Below, one piece after another: positions 2,589 to 59,354 of a stretch of 64,000 nucleotides of DNA. The DNA lies in the NCBI GenBank assembly GCA_043780615.1, contig JAYWDN010000064.1, forward strand, positions 3,985 through 67,984, given 5' to 3'. Position 1 is the stretch's first letter; every line of letters starts with the position of its first letter. This DNA is from Bacteroidota bacterium. GTDB lineage: Bacteria > Bacteroidota > Bacteroidia > Cytophagales > Cyclobacteriaceae. Under the pieces are notes generated by a model. That model worked only from the letters and a program-made list of their open reading frames with translations. It was not told where the DNA came from and did no database searches. A program made the translations under genes and the position numbers.

Positions 2589-3374
2589 TTAAAGACTGCC
2601 CGTGCGGCCACCATCCACAGGCAAACTTACGCCATTGATATAGCCTGCAGCAGGCGATGCAAGAAAAGCAACCGCGGCAGCCACTTCGCTGGCCTCGGCC
2701 ATGCGGCCAGCGGGGATCTCGTCAATCATTTCTTGACGGATTTCATCTTCCGTTTTCCCGGATTTTTGCGAGCGTGTTTGTATCAATGATTCTATTCTTC
2801 CGGTTTTTGTGCTGCCCGGCAAAATATTATTTACTGTAATTCCAAAAGGAGCAAGCTCAAGAGAAAGCGTTTTCGACCAACTGGCCATCGCGCCACGAAC
2901 GGTGTTGGATACGCCCAATCCTTTGATCGGAATTTTCACCGAAGTAGAAATAATGTTGACGATCCTTCCGTAATTATTTTTTTTCATTGTGGGCACACAA
3001 GCCTGAACAAGGATATGACTGCAAATCAAATGCGCATGGATGGCGTTCAGAAAGTCTTCCGGCTTTGAATCAATGGCTTGGCCTGCGGGTGGACCTCCGG
3101 TGTTGTTGATGAGAATGTGAATGTCTTTTGCTGAAATCAATTTTTGAACAATATTTTTTACCTGATCAGGGAAATTAAAATCAGCCGTGATGAAATTATG
3201 CTTTTGTCCTTGCACAGAAGAAAGTTCGTTCAACGTAGATTTTAATTTGACTTCATCACGAGCGAGCAAAGTAACGCTCGCCCCAAGCGATGCCAACTCA
3301 ATAGCCGTGGCTTTGCCAATGCCTTGCGTGCTTCCGCAGACCAAAGCATTTTTCCCGATAAGGTTTAAATCCAT
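2589..3374 (-). CDS. SDR family oxidoreductase
   Basis: GSTQGIG nucleotide-binding motif, NNTGGP, and a C-terminal INGVSLPVDGG. Confidence 0.9.
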   Translation of the reverse strand: MDLNLIGKNALVCGSTQGIGKATAIELASLGASVTLLARDEVKLKSTLNELSSVQGQKHNFITADFNFPDQVKNIVQKLISAKDIHILINNTGGPPAGQAIDSKPEDFLNAIHAHLICSHILVQACVPTMKKNNYGRIVNIISTSVKIPIKGLGVSNTVRGAMASWSKTLSLELAPFGITVNNILPGSTKTGRIESLIQTRSQKSGKTEDEIRQEMIDEIPAGRMAEASEVAAAVAFLASPAAGYINGVSLPVDGGRTGSL

Positions 3375-3413
3375 AAAATGATTTTCTGTAAAGATAAAAG
3401 ACCAGTCGATTAA

Positions 3414-4784
3414 CTAAAGAAGTTGCGAAGAAGGTGTCAAGACACCTTTGTTGATTTTCTCTTTCCATCTTCCCGACTTCATATACCAAAACGACATCGA
3501 AAACATGCCCGCCCAATAGACGAGCTCACTGGCCCAGCCCCAGGTGATGGACAAGTTCCATGTTTCAAGTACAAGATAAACGTAAACGCTGTAAACAATA
3601 ATCGTGATCGACTCGATCATCAGGTTCACTATGGTATTGCCCGTGCCGGTAACGGCATTGAGCCACACGGCCGAGAATGACATCATCAACAGTGCGATGG
3701 AGACAATGCGGATAACAGGAATTGCTTCCACAATAAAAGATTCATCTTGGCCATAAAACGAAAGAAAAATTTCTGGGCCAAGATTTAGTAAAACAGTGAG
3801 TATGACAGAGCAACTTAAACTTAGGATGACAATGCGCCTGACCAACGGCAAAACTTCTTCTTGTTTTTGCTGACCGATTACGTTGCTCACCATCGTGTTT
3901 GCGGTGGCGGCAAACGCCCAGGCGAAAACGCCAAAAATCCCGAAAATATTTCGCATGGTGTTGGAGATGGCCAGCGCACGGTCGCCATGATGTTCGATCA
4001 AAATGTAAAAATATTCCCACGTGATGATGCTGATGGCGTATTGCAAAATCAGGGGAGAAGATTTGTATAGGACATGCCGGATGGTTTCAAAATTGATCTT
4101 CCAATTTTCAAACAATGAAAAAGCGCGGTTGATGCCTTTGAAATGAATGACGATAAAAATCACCAGCAGGCCTGACCCTTCGGCAATAATGGATGCGTAG
4201 GCAGCTCCATTGAATCCAATCTTAGGAAACCCAAAGTGACCGTAGATCAATGCATAGTCAAAAAATATGTTGACAACCGTTTCCGCCAACGTGCCCCAAA
4301 TCAAAAGTTTGGTTTGATTCGTTCCCACCAGCAGCGCATTAAGCATTACATACAAATAAAGGAACGGTAAGCCCCAGATTCGGATAAGGGAAAAACTTAT
4401 TACTTGATCATAAATAACCGTGTTGTGAATTGTGGCTCTTAAAATAATTGGCGCCATGGTGTACGTGAGCAGAATGCCAACCAATGCAATGACAACAGAA
4501 ATCCACACGCCATGAAAAAACAGGTGGCCGATTTCTTTGGGATTGTTTTCACCTGCCTTTCTGGCGATCAACGACTGTAAGCCGTTGTTGAGGCCGTTGC
4601 CGATCACTGCGAAGATCAGATAATAAACTCCAGTGATGCCCGCTGCGGCAAGGGATTGCTCGCCAAGCCCACCCAAAAAAATATTGTTGGTGATAAAATT
4701 GATCTGCGGAACTAAGATGGCCAGCGAGATGGGCAGGGCCATGCCAAGGATTTGTTTGTAGCCAGTCTGTAGTCGTAAATCCAT
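3414..4784 (-). CDS. MATE family efflux transporter
   Basis: About 12 hydrophobic segments with MATE motifs (NIFFDYALIYGHFGFPKIGFNGAAYAS). Confidence 0.9.
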   Translation of the reverse strand: MDLRLQTGYKQILGMALPISLAILVPQINFITNNIFLGGLGEQSLAAAGITGVYYLIFAVIGNGLNNGLQSLIARKAGENNPKEIGHLFFHGVWISVVIALVGILLTYTMAPIILRATIHNTVIYDQVISFSLIRIWGLPFLYLYVMLNALLVGTNQTKLLIWGTLAETVVNIFFDYALIYGHFGFPKIGFNGAAYASIIAEGSGLLVIFIVIHFKGINRAFSLFENWKINFETIRHVLYKSSPLILQYAISIITWEYFYILIEHHGDRALAISNTMRNIFGIFGVFAWAFAATANTMVSNVIGQQKQEEVLPLVRRIVILSLSCSVILTVLLNLGPEIFLSFYGQDESFIVEAIPVIRIVSIALLMMSFSAVWLNAVTGTGNTIVNLMIESITIIVYSVYVYLVLETWNLSITWGWASELVYWAGMFSMSFWYMKSGRWKEKINKGVLTPSSQLL

Positions 4785-4868: not shown

Positions 4869-5516
4869 TCATGCTTTTAAGGATAAAAATATCTTGGAAG
4901 GCTTTAGGGTTGCCTCTTGAATGCGCTTTTTGATTTGGGCCAAGGAAATGGGGTTGATCAATTTGGGCGGGTCAATGTTTTCGTCTATCTCATCAAAAAA
5001 ATTCAAGGCCTTCATCGCAATCATAGGGTTACTGAAACTATATTTTCGGGTAAAGAATTCGAGCATTTGCGCCATGCTGAAGTGCTGCAATAAATAATGC
5101 ACGTCAATAAAATCTTTCAGTCGCTTGCCGCTTTGCACAATGGCATGAAACTTCATGGCCGCAATATCTTCCTTGCTCAAAAACGTAATGCCTTCTTCGG
5201 TAATGGGCGGGAGAATAAGTGGATAGCTATGTTTTATGAAACCCGTTTTGATATTGTTGATTAATGAGATGATCGTATTTTTTCTGCGAAAAATTTCCTT
5301 TACTTCATATTTTGGGTTTAAAAGATTTAAAACAAAATCTTCTTCAAAATCGCTTTGCGTAAATAAGTCAATGTCTATAGAATTGCGATGGCCTAACTGT
5401 AATGCCAAGGCCGTTCCTCCAACTAAATAAAAACCCTTCAATTCGGGTAGCTGTTGAAGCTCTTGAATTAGCCTGAATGTTTTGGGTGAAATAATGACGG
5501 GTGCCTTATGCAGCAT
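4869..5516 (-). CDS. AbiEii/AbiGii-type nucleotidyltransferase toxin (type IV TA)
   Basis: LVGGTALALQLGHRNSIDIDLF nucleotidyltransferase motif and K..A...R...KDFIDV motif. Overlaps the upstream small gene by 11 bp. Confidence 0.85.
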   Translation of the reverse strand: MLHKAPVIISPKTFRLIQELQQLPELKGFYLVGGTALALQLGHRNSIDIDLFTQSDFEEDFVLNLLNPKYEVKEIFRRKNTIISLINNIKTGFIKHSYPLILPPITEEGITFLSKEDIAAMKFHAIVQSGKRLKDFIDVHYLLQHFSMAQMLEFFTRKYSFSNPMIAMKALNFFDEIDENIDPPKLINPISLAQIKKRIQEATLKPSKIFLSLKA

Positions 5517-5766
5517 GAAGAAATTCGGAGGCTAAAAAGAATTTAGAAAAATCTTTGTCTCGTTGATCCAGTTGCGCACTCCAGGAAATTGTTTCCAAAA
5601 TTTGCTCTTGTTTATAGAACTTGACCATGTTGCGCCACTCTTCCAGGTTGCCCAATTGCAAAACCCGCTCGATCACAATTTTGTACGATTTCTCATAATT
5701 GAAGGTGTCCACATCATACTCCCAGAGCAGGGCGGTGTTGATGATATGCGGCTTGGTCTTTAGCAT
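5506..5766 (-). CDS. Small putative antitoxin (DUF6922-like) partner of AbiEii
   Basis: LLWEYD...VIERVLQLGNLEEWR motif, which I recall in partners of AbiEii toxins. Translationally coupled to the toxin. Confidence 0.7.
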   Translation of the reverse strand: MLKTKPHIINTALLWEYDVDTFNYEKSYKIVIERVLQLGNLEEWRNMVKFYKQEQILETISWSAQLDQRDKDFSKFFLASEFLHAA

Positions 5767-10397: not shown

Positions 10398-12797
10398 ATG
10401 AATCGTTCCATCAAAAAAATTGCAGTCCTTGGCTCTGGCATCATGGGCTCGCGCATCGCCTGTCATTTCGCCAACATTGGTTGTGAAGTCTTGCTGCTCG
10501 ACATTGCACCCAACCAACTCACCGATGACGAGAAGAAAAAAAATCTAACGATCGGCCATCCGGCTGTAAAAAATCGAATTGTTAACGCAGCCTTCGAAGC
10601 TACGCTCAAAGCAAATCCGGCTCCGCTCTTCAGTAAAAAATTTGCCTCGCGTGTAAAGCTTGGGAACTTTACGGATGATATGCCGAAGATCAAAAACTAC
10701 GACTGGACGATTGAAGTAGTGGTAGAAAACCTCGACATCAAAAAGAAAGTGTACGAGGAAGTAGAGAAATACAGAACACCCGGAACGCTAATTACTTCAA
10801 ACACTTCAGGCATCCCCATCCACTTAATGGCCGAAGGCCGAAGCGAAGATTTTCAAAAACATTTTGCGGGCACGCACTTTTTCAATCCTCCCCGTTATTT
10901 GAAACTTCTCGAAATCATTCCCACCGCAAAAACGGATTCTTTGGTCACCAATTTTTTAATGCACTATGGCGACCTCTTTTTAGGAAAGACTACGGTGCTT
11001 TGCAAGGACACACCAGCATTCATTGGCAACCGCGTTGGTGTTTGGGGGTTGTTGAAGGTGATCGACTCCATGAAAAAGTTTGATCTCAATGTAGATGAAG
11101 TGGATAAACTTACCGGCCCAGTTATTGGCAGACCCAAGTCGGCTACGTTTAGAACCTCGGATGTGGTTGGATTGGATACGCTCGTGAAAGTGGCCAACAA
11201 TCTTTATGCTGGATTGCCAAAAGACGAAGCACGTGAAATATTTAAGTTGCCCGAAGTAGTTGAAAAGCTCGATAAAAATAAATGGCTTGGCGATAAAACA
11301 GGTCAAGGTTTTTATAAGAAGACAAAAAACGCAAAAGGCGAAACGGAAATCCTTACGCTCGATCTTAAAACATTAGAATATAAAACAAAAACCAAAGCAA
11401 AGTTTGCCACACTGGAAACCACCAGGGCGATCGACAATTTAAAAGATCGTTTCAAAGTGTTGTTGTCAGGCAAAGACAAAGCAGGAGATTTTTATCGCGA
11501 TTGTTTTTATGGGTTGTTTCAATACGTCACCAATCGCATCCCCGAAATCAGTGATGAACTTTTCCGCATCGATGATGCCGTGAGCGGTGGCTTTGGTTGG
11601 GACCTTGGCCCATTCGAAACTTGGGATGCTGTTGGCGTAGAGAAAAGCCTTCCGCTGATGGAAGCAGCCGGATACAAACCCGCGCAATGGGTTTATGATA
11701 TGATCGCTTCGGGCAACAAATCATTTTACAAAAGTGATGCAGGTCAGAAAAAATATTATGACATCCCCACAAAGTCCTATAAGTCGATCCCCGGAAGGGA
11801 AAGTTTTGTCATCCTCGAAAACAAAAGTGAAAATGTGGTTTGGAAAAACCCCGGCTCAAAAATCACCGACCTAGGCGATGGTGTACTCAACTTTGCGTGG
11901 CATACCAAGAGCTATACGCTTGGCAGTGAAGTGATCGAAGGGTTAAACAAAGCGATTGACTTGGCCGAAAAAGATTATCGTGGCCTTGTAGTTGGGCATC
12001 AAGGTGCTGATTTTTCGCTTGGCGCTAATTTGGGCTTGGTGTTTATGTATGCCATCGAACAAGAATATGACGAGATCGATTTCATGATCAAGCATTTTCA
12101 AAATTCGGTGATGCGCATTCGCTATTCTTCGGTGCCGGTGGTGGTTGCTCCGCATAGCCGCACACTGGGCGGTGGTTGCGAAATGACCATGCATGCCGAC
12201 ATTGCTGTGGCGGCTGCCGAAACCTATATCGGCTTGGTGGAAGTTGGTGTTGGGCTCATCCCCGGGGGTGGTGGCACAAAAGAATTTACCAAAAGGGTAA
12301 GCGATGCCATCCAAGAAGGCGATGTTGAATTGAACGCATTGCAAAATGCATTCATGAATATTGCTACGGCAAAAGTGGCGACCTCGGCAGAAGAAGCACG
12401 TGAGATTGGCATCTTGAAAAAACTCGATCGCGTGTCGATGAACAAAGACCGTCAGATGGCCGATGCAAAAGAAGCGGTGATTGAGTTGGCGGATGCCGGT
12501 TATACCATGATGCCACAAGCAAAAAATATTAAAGTACAAGGCCGAACAGGGCAGGCTTTATTCCTTGCGGGACTTCAAGGCATGTTGATGGGGAAGTATA
12601 TTTCTGAACATGATGCCAAGGTAGCCAAGTGGATTGCCAACGTGATGTGCGGTGGTGACTTGACTTCGCCCCAAGAAGTGAGCGAGCAATATTTATTGGA
12701 TTTGGAACGCGAAGCATTTTTATCCCTCACCGGTGAGAAGAAAACGTTAGAAAGAATTCAAGCGATATTGACGGGAGGACGACCACTTCGTAACTAA
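10398..12797 (+). CDS. fadN: 3-hydroxyacyl-CoA dehydrogenase/enoyl-CoA hydratase (FadN-type)
   Basis: GSGIMG Rossmann motif, SNTSG and THFFNPP, and a C-terminal crotonase domain (LGGGCE, GLVEVGVGLIPGGGG). Confidence 0.92.
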   Translation: MNRSIKKIAVLGSGIMGSRIACHFANIGCEVLLLDIAPNQLTDDEKKKNLTIGHPAVKNRIVNAAFEATLKANPAPLFSKKFASRVKLGNFTDDMPKIKNYDWTIEVVVENLDIKKKVYEEVEKYRTPGTLITSNTSGIPIHLMAEGRSEDFQKHFAGTHFFNPPRYLKLLEIIPTAKTDSLVTNFLMHYGDLFLGKTTVLCKDTPAFIGNRVGVWGLLKVIDSMKKFDLNVDEVDKLTGPVIGRPKSATFRTSDVVGLDTLVKVANNLYAGLPKDEAREIFKLPEVVEKLDKNKWLGDKTGQGFYKKTKNAKGETEILTLDLKTLEYKTKTKAKFATLETTRAIDNLKDRFKVLLSGKDKAGDFYRDCFYGLFQYVTNRIPEISDELFRIDDAVSGGFGWDLGPFETWDAVGVEKSLPLMEAAGYKPAQWVYDMIASGNKSFYKSDAGQKKYYDIPTKSYKSIPGRESFVILENKSENVVWKNPGSKITDLGDGVLNFAWHTKSYTLGSEVIEGLNKAIDLAEKDYRGLVVGHQGADFSLGANLGLVFMYAIEQEYDEIDFMIKHFQNSVMRIRYSSVPVVVAPHSRTLGGGCEMTMHADIAVAAAETYIGLVEVGVGLIPGGGGTKEFTKRVSDAIQEGDVELNALQNAFMNIATAKVATSAEEAREIGILKKLDRVSMNKDRQMADAKEAVIELADAGYTMMPQAKNIKVQGRTGQALFLAGLQGMLMGKYISEHDAKVAKWIANVMCGGDLTSPQEVSEQYLLDLEREAFLSLTGEKKTLERIQAILTGGRPLRN

Positions 12798-12828
12798 AAG
12801 TAGGCAGTAGGCAAAAGCAGTAGGCAAT
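12797..12828 (+). repeat. Left heptamer-repeat arm (AGTAGGC x3) of four-helix-bundle cassette
   Basis: AGTAGGC-AGTAGGC-AAAAGC-AGTAGGC-AAT immediately before the ATG at 12829. Confidence 0.8.
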
Positions 12829-13230
12829 ATGAATGATTCAAATCAAAGCTTCAGAGACTTGACAGTTTATAAGAAAGCATTTGAAATGGCTATGGAAATA
12901 TTTGAGGTTTCAAAAACATTTCCAAAAGAAGAACGGTATTCCTTGACAGATCAGATAAGAAGATCGTCTCGTGCTATTTGTAGTTGCATTGCTGAAGCAT
13001 ATCGCAAGAGAAATTATCCGGCTTATTTTGTAAGTAAATCTTCTGACGCCGACATGGAGAATAGTGAAACGCAATCCTGGCTTGATTTTTCTCACGCTTG
13101 CAACTATGTTGATGATGATAAATTCAAAGGTTTATTGACGAAATCGGAAGAGGTAGGAAGAATGCTCAATCACATGGTTGAAAATCCCGAAAAGTATTTA
13201 AGGAAAAAAGAGAATGTCACAGATCAGTAG
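12829..13230 (+). CDS. Four helix bundle protein (bAvd-like / 23S rRNA IVS protein-like family)
   Basis: FRDLTVYKKA...FPKEERYSLTDQIRRSSRAI...IAEAY...F......E.SETQSWL signature. Confidence 0.92.
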   Translation: MNDSNQSFRDLTVYKKAFEMAMEIFEVSKTFPKEERYSLTDQIRRSSRAICSCIAEAYRKRNYPAYFVSKSSDADMENSETQSWLDFSHACNYVDDDKFKGLLTKSEEVGRMLNHMVENPEKYLRKKENVTDQ

Positions 13231-13257
13231 CCTTTGCCTATTGCAATTGCCTACTTT
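13230..13257 (+). repeat. Right arm (GCCTAYT units), inverted complement of left arm
   Basis: TTTGCCTATTGCAATTGCCTACTTT. ATTGCCTACT is the reverse complement of AGTAGGCAAT, and TGCCTACTTT is the reverse complement of AAAGTAGGCA. Confidence 0.8.
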
Positions 13258-13282
13258 AAAGAATATTATAAACTCAAACACT

Positions 13283-14458
13283 ATGGACGCATACATTGTA
13301 GCTGGTTTTAGAACTGGCGTAGGAAAAGCAAAAAAAGGTGGCCTTCGTTTTACACGGCCCGATGATTTGGCAGCCGATGTGATCAAGCATCTTGTGAAAT
13401 CAATCCCGGGATTGGAAAACAAAATGGTCGATGACCTGATCGTAGGCAATGCCGTGCCCGAAGCAGAACAAGGTATGCAAATGGGCCGCATGATTTCGTT
13501 GCTCGCGCTGGGCATCGATGCGCCAGGCATGATCGTGAATCGCTATTGCGGATCGGGAGTGGAAACAATCGCTATCGCGAGCCATCGCATTCAAGCAGGT
13601 CAAGCCGACATTATTATTGCAGGGGGAACTGAATCCATGTCGTTGGTTCCTGTGATGGGATTTCGCACGGCACTTAACTACGCTATCGCGAAAGACACGC
13701 CAACTTATTATACCAGCATGGGCTTGACGGCCGAGGAAATCTCTAAGCAATATAAAGTTTCTCGCGAAGAGCAAGATCAGTTCTCGTACGAATCGCACAT
13801 GAAAGCTGCGGCCGCATGGAAGGAAGGGAAATTCAAAGATGAAATTGTGGCCATCACCGTAAAAGAAGTTTATGTGGATGAGAACATGAAAAAGAAAACA
13901 CGTGAATATATCCATGACAAAGACGATGGCATTCGTGCCGATACAACGGTGGAAGGTCTCTCAAAACTGAAAGCGGTTTTTGCAATTGGAGGAACGGTAA
14001 CAGCAGGCAACTCTTCACAAACTTCAGATGGTGCAGCATTCGTTGCTGTAATGTCTGAGCGGATGGTGAAGCAACTCAACCTGAAACCAATTGCAAGAAT
14101 GGTGAGCTATGCCACCGCAGGGGTTGATCCGCGTATCATGGGCATTGGGCCTGTGGCCGCAATTCCGAAAGCATTAAAAAATGCAAACTTGAAATTGAAC
14201 GACATCGATTTGATCGAACTCAATGAAGCATTCGCGGCACAATCATTAGCAGTAGTAAAAGAATTAGGGATAGACAGAAAAAAATTAAATGTAAATGGAG
14301 GAGCAATTGCGGTTGGTCATCCTCTCGGATCCTCCGGGGCAAGATTATCTGTTCAGCTTTTTAATGAGTTGAGAAGACAAAAGAAAAAATACGGAATGGT
14401 AACGGCATGCGTTGGTGGAGGCCAAGGCGTGGCAGGAATTTATGAACTCCTCAATTGA
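13283..14458 (+). CDS. fadA: Acetyl-CoA C-acyltransferase (thiolase)
   Basis: NRYCGSG active-site Cys, NEAFAAQ, GHPLG and CVGGGQG. Start moved to ATG 13283 (MDAYIV). Confidence 0.95.
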   Translation: MDAYIVAGFRTGVGKAKKGGLRFTRPDDLAADVIKHLVKSIPGLENKMVDDLIVGNAVPEAEQGMQMGRMISLLALGIDAPGMIVNRYCGSGVETIAIASHRIQAGQADIIIAGGTESMSLVPVMGFRTALNYAIAKDTPTYYTSMGLTAEEISKQYKVSREEQDQFSYESHMKAAAAWKEGKFKDEIVAITVKEVYVDENMKKKTREYIHDKDDGIRADTTVEGLSKLKAVFAIGGTVTAGNSSQTSDGAAFVAVMSERMVKQLNLKPIARMVSYATAGVDPRIMGIGPVAAIPKALKNANLKLNDIDLIELNEAFAAQSLAVVKELGIDRKKLNVNGGAIAVGHPLGSSGARLSVQLFNELRRQKKKYGMVTACVGGGQGVAGIYELLN

Positions 14459-14524
14459 CAGTTCACAAAAGTCAGTTGACAAAATTTTGTCAACTGACCC
14501 GAAGGGATTTGTCAATTGTCAACT
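14453..14524. repeat. Palindromic heptamer-repeat element (apparently empty cassette)
   Basis: Perfect 28-bp palindrome GTCAGTTGACAAAATTTTGTCAACTGAC at 14471-14498, inside outer arms 14453-14469 and 14508-14524 (14/17 complementary). Confidence 0.85.
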
Positions 14525-16391: not shown

Positions 16392-16423
16392 AAAACCCGA
16401 AAGAGATTTCGGGTTTTATTTTT
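16392..16423 (+). terminator. Intrinsic terminator of fad operon
   Basis: AAAACCCGAAA-GAGA-TTTCGGGTTTT followed by a T-rich tail. Confidence 0.85.
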
Positions 16424-32787: not shown

Positions 32788-32882
32788 TTAAGGGCATCTC
32801 TAAAACCCCGCCACACCTTCTCTTCCGGAGAAGGGGAAGGGGTTGAGGTAGTCAAAGGCAAGGTTTTTAGAGATGCCCTTAA
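32788..32882. mobile_element. MITE-like element with 18-bp perfect terminal inverted repeat
   Basis: TTAAGGGCATCTCTAAAA ... TTTTAGAGATGCCCTTAA, with an internal hairpin CCTTCTC-TTCCG-GAGAAGG. Confidence 0.7.
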
Positions 32883-59221: not shown

Positions 59222-59354
59222 TTAAGTACATCTCTAAAAACTTAAAATTGACGTCATTGCGAGGGAGGGACGACCGAAGCAATCTCCAATTGAGTGCTTC
59301 AAATGGGGATTGCTTCGCTAACGCTCGCAATGACGGTTAGATTTTTAGAGATGC
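59222..59354. mobile_element. MITE-like element with CATCTCTAAAAA TIR enclosing GTCATTGCGAG...CTCGCAATGAC palindrome
   Basis: TIR at 59229-59240 and 59342-59353 (12/12). Inner IRs at 59252-59263 / 59324-59335 (12/12) and 59275-59288 / 59304-59317 (13/14). Confidence 0.75.

Follow-up and report, generated by a model that had tools for sequence, protein, structure and literature searches.

A four-helix-bundle gene between inverted heptamer arrays in the fad operon of a Cyclobacteriaceae bacterium, a probable relative of the intervening sequences of rRNA

Intervening sequences (IVSs) that carry an open reading frame (ORF) within 23S rRNA have been known since about 1990, with Leptospira and Coxiella burnetii among their hosts, and to our knowledge no function has been assigned to the ORF. 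The literature treats these IVSs as rRNA parasites of unknown origin, with an ORF that has been speculated to serve mobility (PMC4990558). The Coxiella IVS is closed by a 28-bp terminal stem, which is cut by RNase III, and carries two to three GACAGAT heptamers, their number depending on the strain, just upstream of its ORF (PMC4990558). Here we analyse a stretch of 64,000 nt from a Cyclobacteriaceae genome (Bacteroidota; GenBank assembly GCA_043780615.1, contig JAYWDN010000064.1, positions 3,985 to 67,984; hereafter the window), in which a four-helix-bundle (4HB) gene of the PF05635 family lies between inverted heptamer arrays inside the fad operon. This locus is very probably one copy of a general IVS-type cassette that is evolutionarily mobile and resides within protein-coding operons.

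Avd, a subunit of diversity-generating retroelements (DGRs), is another described protein of related fold. Cryo-electron microscopy shows that the Avd pentamer barrel binds an RNA stem-loop with all five protomers, which use the same residues on flipped-out bases; DGR RNAs, too, pair sequences flanking their template region (10.1101/2023.10.23.563531). The initial annotation of the window had invoked Avd relatives as RNA binders, and Avd does bind structured RNA; that the 4HB protein binds the stem formed by its repeats may reasonably be inferred from this, and nothing further. Intergenic heptanucleotide repeats form another body of related observations, including the STRR repeats of cyanobacteria, TAACTGA in Beggiatoaceae and Bacteroidetes (PMC4679880), and GGGAATC in Xanthomonas and GGGGA(C/T)T in Nostoc (PMC4692102). 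Convergent (inverted) heptamer pairs number about 70 per genome in Xanthomonas (PMC4692102). The papers on TAACTGA, GGGAATC and GGGGA(C/T)T draw no link between the repeats and PF05635, and a term search of PMC4679880 returned no mention of S23, four-helix or intervening sequence.

The cassette in the window fills the fadN-fadA junction, where the initial annotation had placed it, and both the gene and its two arms are present with the sequences it described (Table 1). The left arm shares its first base with the end of the fadN stop codon (TAA, 12795-12797) and runs up to the ATG at 12829 with 0 nt between them. Left arms of the TAGGCA type are also present in orthologous cassettes, and the right arm is one heptamer shorter than in the closest relatives, such as locus L181. 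The A-rich leader that follows it is similar to what makes up the entire spacer (12 nt, AATATTAAAACT) at empty junctions. For the 4HB gene, which is oriented as the operon is, neither its own promoter nor its own terminator was detected, and the interval 12797-13282 holds no terminator-like site (G+C-rich hairpin plus T run) of the kind expected of an intrinsic terminator or attenuator. Along the fad genes only one terminator-like hairpin is predicted, and since it stands after the gene for acyl-CoA dehydrogenase (fadE), the cassette lies inside one predicted transcription unit.

Table 1. Coordinates of the cassette, its host genes and associated elements in the window.
Feature	Position	Strand	Description
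fadN-type 3-hydroxyacyl-CoA dehydrogenase / enoyl-CoA hydratase	10398..12797	+	799 aa; 3HCDH_N/3HCDH/ECH; stop codon abuts left arm
Left arm	12797..12828	+	AAAGTAGGCAGTAGGCAAAAGCAGTAGGCAAT; AGTAGGC x3 (12799, 12806, 12819) and one degenerate unit AAAAGC
4HB gene	12829..13230	+	133 aa; PF05635 23S_rRNA_IVP / TIGR02436; TAG stop
Right arm	13231..13257	+	CCTTTGCCTATTGCAATTGCCTACTTT; TGCCTAC/TGCCTAT, complement of left-arm units
A-rich leader	13258..13282	+	from right arm to thiolase ATG (13283)
Acetyl-CoA acyltransferase (thiolase, fadA type)	13283..14458	+	downstream host gene
Gene-less element, fadA-fadE spacer	14456..14521	+	TTGACA-type inverted heptamer arms (outer 14456-14469 / 14508-14521) around perfect hairpin 14471-14498
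Terminator-like hairpin	16392..16417	+	after acyl-CoA dehydrogenase gene (fadE); sole one predicted along the fad genes

The complementarity of the two arms exceeds chance. A repeat search recovers them as an inverted repeat of 22 nt (12806-12827 / 13234-13255) that is 86% complementary, and this pair ranks second among all inverted repeats spaced within 600 nt in the whole window. The arm duplex has a predicted energy of -32.3 kcal/mol, a value reached by only 1 of 5000 equally spaced segment pairs from the window (mean -9.5, sd 4.0). The window holds 12 copies of AGTAGGC where 2.3 are expected, a count reached by none of 100 shuffled sequences; four of the copies lie within the arms. When the RNA of 12790-13265 is folded, the arm stem closes the entire ORF in both the minimum-free-energy and the centroid structure, which together with the duplex energy agrees with the proposal that the arms can close a stem around the gene. 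There is one 4HB gene in the window, and an Rfam scan of its full length detected no known RNA family, rRNA included, at the arms or elsewhere.

The protein encoded between the arms is a clear member of its family. It matches PF05635 at 110.9 bits (cut-off 33.8) over residues 9-114, TIGR02436 at 97 bits (cut-off 24) and, at 42.6 bits (cut-off 40), the bAvd-like family PF22296, in keeping with a four-helix-bundle fold homologous to that of Avd; PF05635 and PF22296 are the sole matching families. By the Avd equivalog model NF033474 it is not a DGR Avd (34.6 bits vs cut-off 80) and, in contrast to Avd, it is encoded with no reverse transcriptase, template/variable repeat pair or target gene near the cassette, no reverse-transcriptase domain having been found among the neighbouring proteins. 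Sequence matches extend to the structures 2RLD (E=2.5e-7) and 2GSC/XCC0516 (E=3.9e-7), each deposited with five chains. Across 31 TAGGCA-type 4HB genes the median dN/dS is 0.10, falling to 0.05 for pairs with dS<1, and such purifying selection argues that the protein is functional. The family is large, comprising 8301 representative clusters at E≤0.001 with the window protein as the single query. Comparison of the TAGGCA and TTGACA clades, which carry different arms, was uninformative on which residues might matter, given that only N5A, S79T and Q82R discriminate between them. Among PADLOC defence models the window protein has only a spurious 14-bit match to GajB, and a search of viral contigs gave one weak match, this subfamily being hardly present on phage contigs. 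A supposed link of PF05635 to the HEPN superfamily was dropped; the survey of that superfamily makes no mention of the family (PMC3710099).

A true 23S IVS of the same design is present on a plasmid. Among the 28 records obtained by tblastn of plasmids, L186 (Azospirillum lipoferum AZO_p2) is a large-subunit rRNA gene (Rfam, 2150 bits) with a 4HB ORF, 32.5% identical to the window protein, bracketed by AGAGGACGGATGACAGAGGACGGAGGACAG and CCGTCCTCTGTCTTCTGTCATCCGTCTTCT. The left arm (AGAGGACGGATGACAGAGGACGGAGGACAGAAAGGCAG) and the right arm (CCGTCCTCTGTCTTCTGTCATCCGTCTTCTGA) form heptamer arrays in inverted orientation, and when folded they enclose the ORF with a stem of about 25 bp. The likeness to rRNA IVSs drawn in the initial annotation is therefore matched by an actual example, and likewise by the Coxiella element (PMC4990558), whose GACAGAT unit read in another register is ATGACAG, one base off the TTGACAG of Cyclobacteriaceae cassettes. 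IVSs and the window cassette share the PF05635 family, an ORF that forms the loop of a stem of about 25-30 bp made by terminal inverted repeats, and arms of tandem heptamers (GACAGAT in Coxiella, GAGGACG/GATGACA in Azospirillum, AGTAGGC in the window and TTGACAG in its relatives), as well as sporadic distribution, evidence of horizontal transfer and ORF-less derivatives. They differ in their host transcript, which for the window cassette is a protein-coding operon in a stretch containing no rRNA, and in position, as the window cassette is inserted in an intercistronic spacer at a stop codon whereas rRNA IVSs occupy helix 9, 25 or 45 of 23S rRNA. They differ also in that the window ORF is under strong purifying selection while that of Coxiella is reported to be in decay and probably not translated (PMC4990558), and in that excision by RNase III is proven for IVSs but only predicted for the window cassette.

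Inverted heptamer arms are widespread in the family. A scan of one genome per species covered 80 loci whose 4HB proteins share 59-86% identity with that of the window; the hosts belong to Cytophagales, Ignavibacteria, Chitinophagaceae, Bacteroidales, Saprospiraceae, Flavobacteriales and Cloacimonadota, and nearly all the loci have tandem heptamers upstream of the gene and their complement downstream. Arm statistics were obtained from the 80-nt flanks of 117 non-identical 4HB genes from several phyla and of 499 control genes, in a family sample that is biased towards proteins at least 59% identical to the window protein and supplemented with paralogues in the flanks and plasmid copies. The median gapped inverted-repeat score is 27 for the cassettes and 14 for the controls (Mann-Whitney p=2e-28), and 64% of the cassettes exceed the 95th percentile of controls and 47% the 99th; complementary arms, some of them with compensatory changes, are thus found at other family loci, which supports the initial annotation. 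The flanks match themselves at lag 7 with a frequency of 0.64 upstream and 0.60 downstream, compared with 0.39-0.45 at other lags. Of period-7 tandem arrays, 42% are found at most 120 nt from a 4HB gene, in a zone that holds 7.8% of bases and 7.6% of period-6 arrays. Arms above the control threshold have medians of 29 nt in length, 86% complementarity and -39.8 kcal/mol of duplex energy; their median distances are 18 nt to the ATG, upstream, and 5 nt from the stop codon, downstream. In the clade of the window protein the upstream units (TAGGCAG, TTGACAG, TTGGCAG, TCGGCAG) have the consensus TNRRCAR, with 5.1 TNRRCA units per 180 nt of arm against a background of 0.96.

These cassettes occupy varied operons and plasmids, mostly in line with transcription. 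Their orientation is that of both neighbours in 79 of 85 cases (baseline 76%), at median gaps of 59 and 79 nt to the two. Many of the host operons are of housekeeping type, with insertions at murD-ftsW, after prfA, and upstream of a geranylgeranyl reductase gene next to dnaG or recQ, and a plasmid conjugation operon holds a copy as well; the arrangement gmk-4HB-nadD has been described in Flavobacterium columnare (PMC5524665). Plasmid copies of Nostoc punctiforme and N. flagelliforme have GCAGGGG / CCCCTGC arms, a Leptolyngbya plasmid copy has a purine-rich / pyrimidine-rich arm pair, and the alpha plasmid of Nostoc PCC 7120 has a downstream array only. On a plasmid of Picosynechococcus sp. PCC 7003 (L188, 1198-1554), a GGAGATA/TATCTCC cassette separates cas10/cmr2 from cmr3 in a type III-B operon. 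PF05635 genes had been reported inside all CRISPR-Cas types, for instance between cmr3 and cmr2, by a survey of cas loci that took this as association (PMC3936711). The cmr2-4HB-cmr3 cassette probably explains that reported association, and suggests that PF05635 genes in CRISPR-Cas loci are insertions, not functional partners.

The stop codon of the upstream host gene forms part of the first heptamer in many left arms, as in L047, L061 and L112 (aatTGAcagttgaca) and in L010 and L124 (aatTAGtaggcag). Because 7 is not a multiple of 3, three heptamer units place a stop codon in all three frames; stops in all frames within 50 nt upstream are enriched, not universal, being found at 64% of cassettes and 29% of control genes.

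Cassettes are gained and lost at the fad junctions. Proteins 71-97% identical to that of the window are found at the fadN-fadA junction of Cyclobacteriaceae and other Cytophagales, with TAGGCA-type arms, and in many of these relatives the thiolase and acyl-CoA dehydrogenase genes are separated by another 4HB gene, only distantly related (25-40% identity), with arms of unrelated sequence and the same design, e.g. GTATTGAGATTTGAGAT / ATCTCAAATCTCAATAC. Chryseosolibacter indicus PWU20 (L029) is a cultivable bacterium with a cassette at fadN-fadA. Turnover was assessed in 80 metagenomic loci chosen by thiolase alone (83-97% amino acid identity) and not conditioned on a 4HB gene, with L124 corrected by eye. 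A 4HB gene is present at fadN-fadA in 31 of 75 loci and at fadA-fadE in 24 of 71, so the gene is far from constant at the first junction, which is filled in 31 loci and not in 44. Even the nearest thiolase relatives (96-97% amino acid identity, about 83% nucleotide identity) are without the window's cassette: L098 has a spacer of 5 nt (TAA TAACT ATG), and in L097 and L100 the junction is occupied by hairpins without a gene, which belong to two further unit types. Truly empty junctions have spacers of 2-14 nt, and other gene-less junctions carry inverted heptamer hairpins of 70-110 nt of the TTGACA, TAGGCA, TAAGAC, GTTCGTT/AACGAAC or GAGTCCT types, single arms (L117, L146) or internally deleted ORFs (L154, L143, L134, L175). 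A series with the same arms decays through 169, 110 and 95 nt. The window itself has a gene-less element at its second junction (Table 1), which starts on the thiolase stop codon TGA and folds with z = -4.1; relatives carry there a 4HB gene of the second kind or a hairpin like this one, without a gene.

The two fad junctions host at least six cassette types, which differ from one another in heptamer and in protein subfamily. TAGGCA arms accompany proteins that share at least about 70% identity with the window's, whether these belong to Cytophagales (fadN-fadA) or to Ignavibacteria (before the geranylgeranyl reductase gene); at 67-69% identity, proteins encoded at this fadN-fadA junction come with TTGACA arms. 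As protein identity increases, the Jaccard index for 6-mers repeated in the arms climbs from 0.003 to 0.29. Arm type thus tracks protein clade, not host or locus. At the fadN-fadA junction of L052 (about 4905-4990; likewise in L140), part of a TAGGCA left arm (TAGTAGGCAGTGGGCAGAAAGCAGG) persists directly upstream of a complete TTGACA-type cassette, and it seems that one type was inserted beside another or replaced it. In the source metagenomes (runs X1-X4, Logan) the assembly breaks at the left arm (window 12796-12829), and two further unitigs carry a near-identical left arm (with an extra T after 12814, or one substitution) in other flanks (...GCCAATAAA before and AAAAAAGATG... after) at a depth similar to that of the genome, so there are probably more TAGGCA-armed elements in the same genome or community.

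The symmetry between the arms is maintained position by position. In an alignment of 16 TAGGCA-type arm pairs with a consensus stem of 27 pairs, compensatory changes occur at six of the 27; 95.2% of cells are paired, compared with 92.5% in shuffles (none of 500 reaches the observed value), and 16 cells are double changes, compared with 7.2. Sequence comparison by itself does not separate an RNA stem from a repeat acting as DNA. Three points favour the RNA reading: the homology with IVSs, in which cleavage of such a stem by RNase III has been shown experimentally (PMC4990558), the strong co-orientation with transcription, and the length of the arms, at least two helical turns, as RNase III requires of its substrates.

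On balance, we consider it rather probable that the cassette is co-transcribed with its host operon, that its arms pair into an RNase III-type stem that insulates the host messages and that its protein acts on its own repeats. The cassette consists of a 4HB (PF05635) gene without a promoter, preceded by an array of about three to four heptamers and followed by an array of their complements, and would be transcribed as part of the host operon. Pairing of the arrays in the transcript would give a stem of about 22-30 bp with precisely the ORF as its loop, and RNase III would be expected to cut this stem, as it does in rRNA IVSs. The cassette RNA would thereby be released from the fadN and fadA messages and the insert tolerated, while the left arm would supply or abut the upstream stop codon and the A-rich leader after the right arm would serve the downstream gene. 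A functional, Avd-like 4HB protein would most likely bind the repeat stem of its own cassette. Over evolutionary time, cassettes would be gained and exchanged between phyla together with their arms, lose the ORF by internal deletion to leave gene-less hairpins, and finally be lost. We infer stem formation in vivo, cleavage by RNase III and protein-arm binding, and grade the components separately: an RNA stem processed by RNase III is a prediction that could go either way, and recognition of the arms by the protein, to which the co-variation of arm type with protein clade is the sole pointer, is a more tentative one.

Several observations weigh against this reading. About a third of the cassettes are without clear inverted arms, and in Emticicia, L063 and Oscillatoria L187 the arrays are direct, not inverted. 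The whole-region fold of the window cassette is not unusually stable (z = -1.07), only its arm duplex being so, and the arms used in the covariation test came from related sequences and were pre-selected for complementarity. A mismatch that allows G-U pairing had been taken as a hint of selection on RNA; one of the three mismatches in the 22-nt stem of the window is indeed G·T, but the other two are A·A, and across 60 cassettes G·U-compatible mismatches (59) are no more frequent than A·C (53; p=0.64), which gives no sign of selection on the sense RNA and withdraws that hint. Arm mismatches mostly arise from the mixing of CAGT and CAAT unit variants, and the complementarity could equally be kept at the DNA level. 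The window protein is acidic to neutral (pI 5.8), unlike the basic Avd. The turnover was observed at the level of genomes with only about 83% identity in DNA and not at that of strains. Comparison of filled and empty junctions gives no consistent target-site duplication, the apparent TAA/TTA at the ends belonging to the inverted repeat, and no transposase, recombinase or reverse transcriptase, and so no insertion enzyme, was found in or beside the cassettes examined. The stem, its cleavage and even co-transcription are predictions; searches of sequencing runs with the window, L141 and L123 gave DNA metagenomes or no match.

Were the arms instead to act as DNA, they would be terminal inverted repeats, or would form a single-stranded DNA (ssDNA) hairpin, for transposition or recombination by the 4HB protein or an enzyme supplied in trans, much as RAYT genes mobilise the REP/REPIN hairpins that flank them, and with pairing in RNA incidental. 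The lack of a G·U excess is consistent with this, as are the gene-less hairpins with the same units beside gene-bearing copies, the two extra unitigs with other flanks at similar depth, the entry of at least six types into the same two junctions, and the co-variation of arm type with the flanked gene, reportedly a hallmark of RAYT/REP pairs. RAYTs likewise lie between inverted copies of short repeats whose family is specific to the gene clade, and many gene-less hairpin doublets of these repeats occupy intergenic spacers. The window gene, however, is not an HUH/Y1 transposase, given its matches to PF05635 and PF22296 only, the cassette arms are heptamer arrays and not a single REP palindrome, and 4HB genes are multi-copy, each with its own arms. 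The lack of a transposase, recombinase or reverse transcriptase in or beside the cassettes examined, and of any consistent target-site duplication, tells against a DNA-level element too, we know of no catalytic activity in PF05635, and 93% co-orientation with host transcription would be unexpected of a DNA transposon independent of transcription. With the homologous arms of the rRNA element being a proven RNase III substrate (PMC4990558), we regard this explanation, the main rival, as rather unlikely.

A domesticated regulatory module would combine an intercistronic RNA structure with a heptamer-binding 4HB protein; the two together would set the stability or translation of the fadN, fadA and fadE messages relative to one another, and the cassette would be kept for the benefit of the host and not as a selfish element. 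Strong purifying selection on the protein and conservation of gene and arms at the junction across several families of Cytophagales fit such a role; in Beggiatoaceae, heptamer arrays directly before start codons have been proposed as sites of a post-transcriptional regulator (PMC4679880), and expression of an IVS-family gene changes in biofilms of Flavobacterium psychrophilum (PMC5787105). It is nonetheless improbable in view of the patchy occurrence among close relatives, including the nearest ones by thiolase, which are without the gene at the junction, the unrelated cassette types that share one junction, the frequency of decayed copies, and the presence of the same cassette type in unrelated operons and phyla (fad, murD-ftsW, prfA, cmr and plasmid conjugation operons). 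That the flanking repeats are slippage-prone microsatellites or chance, unlinked to the gene, is highly improbable. Heptamers are over-represented among long simple repeats in many bacteria, for which polymerase slippage has been proposed (PMC4692102), and unit number does vary, as in the right arm of the window and that of L181. Chance is excluded, however, for the window copy and by the enrichment statistics for the family, and slippage gives no account of mirror-image arrays around one gene family, of their fixed polarity or of an arm type that follows protein clade across phyla.

Besides IVSs, Avd and RAYT/REP systems, the cassette resembles two kinds of described sequence. It shares with intergenic heptanucleotide repeats the 7-nt period, the intergenic location, the frequent ending just before a start codon and the occurrence in Cyanobacteria, Bacteroidetes and gamma-proteobacteria, and the cyanobacterial 4HB genes examined are flanked by such arrays. 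With integron cassettes it shares a small, promoterless, co-oriented ORF, transcription from outside and an imperfect inverted repeat; unlike these, 4HB cassettes are without integrase, attI or attC, their repeats bracket the ORF and do not follow it, and they are spread over many different operons and not collected in one array. Full-text literature yielded no account of 4HB genes lying in operons between inverted heptamer arrays, a provisional result given that most subscription journals were outside the search, and the general pattern is apparently undescribed.

The proteins encoded around the cassette are LysR, RlmL, MarR, FadN, thiolase, acyl-CoA dehydrogenase and Mqo, and an identical 4HB protein occurs on metagenomic contigs with the gene order preserved. 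Inverted arrays of the GATCGTT/AACGAAC type, without a 4HB gene, occur between the MarR-like gene and fadN in L012/L019 (about 1467-1543) and L072 (about 3312-3794), so that a third junction of the same operon also collects such elements. Elsewhere in the window, two intergenic palindromes (32788-32882 and 59229-59353) have common termini, (G)CATCTCTAAAA...TTTTAGAGATG(C), and different interiors; the latter contains CGTCATTGCGAGG...CTCGCAATGACG, which is also present in the fadA-fadE spacer of L137. These palindromes look like a separate small family of hairpin repeats. An AbiEii-like toxin gene and a DUF6922 gene at about 4869-5766 (- strand; L001 2041-2938), between catalase and MatE transporter genes, look like a toxin-antitoxin pair.

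A wider interpretation is possible, though doubtful: PF05635 proteins and their cognate inverted heptamer arrays may constitute an autonomous, transposase-free class of mobile element of which rRNA IVSs are the minority lodged in rRNA. A pentamer would then read the 7-nt repeats of its own stem, as RNA or ssDNA, and so drive spread or recruit the processing that renders the insert harmless; the STRR, TAACTGA and GGGAATC repeats would largely be footprints of this class, and the Avd of DGRs a recruited descendant or sibling.

If the element is routine in housekeeping operons of Bacteroidota, Ignavibacteria, Cyanobacteria and Proteobacteria, the question of what the IVS ORF does becomes testable in cultivable bacteria, with cognate and non-cognate pairs of arm and protein as natural controls. 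The unexplained heptanucleotide repeats of cyanobacteria, Beggiatoaceae and Xanthomonas would gain a candidate protein partner, and misleading neighbourhoods would be explained, as the PF05635 genes in CRISPR-Cas loci and in regions listed as phage would be insertions. A self-insulating, stem-bracketed cassette that is tolerated in operons could, in practical terms, guide the design of expression inserts. For DGR biology, the finding offers a hint at the origin of the RNA-gripping Avd subunit of DGRs.

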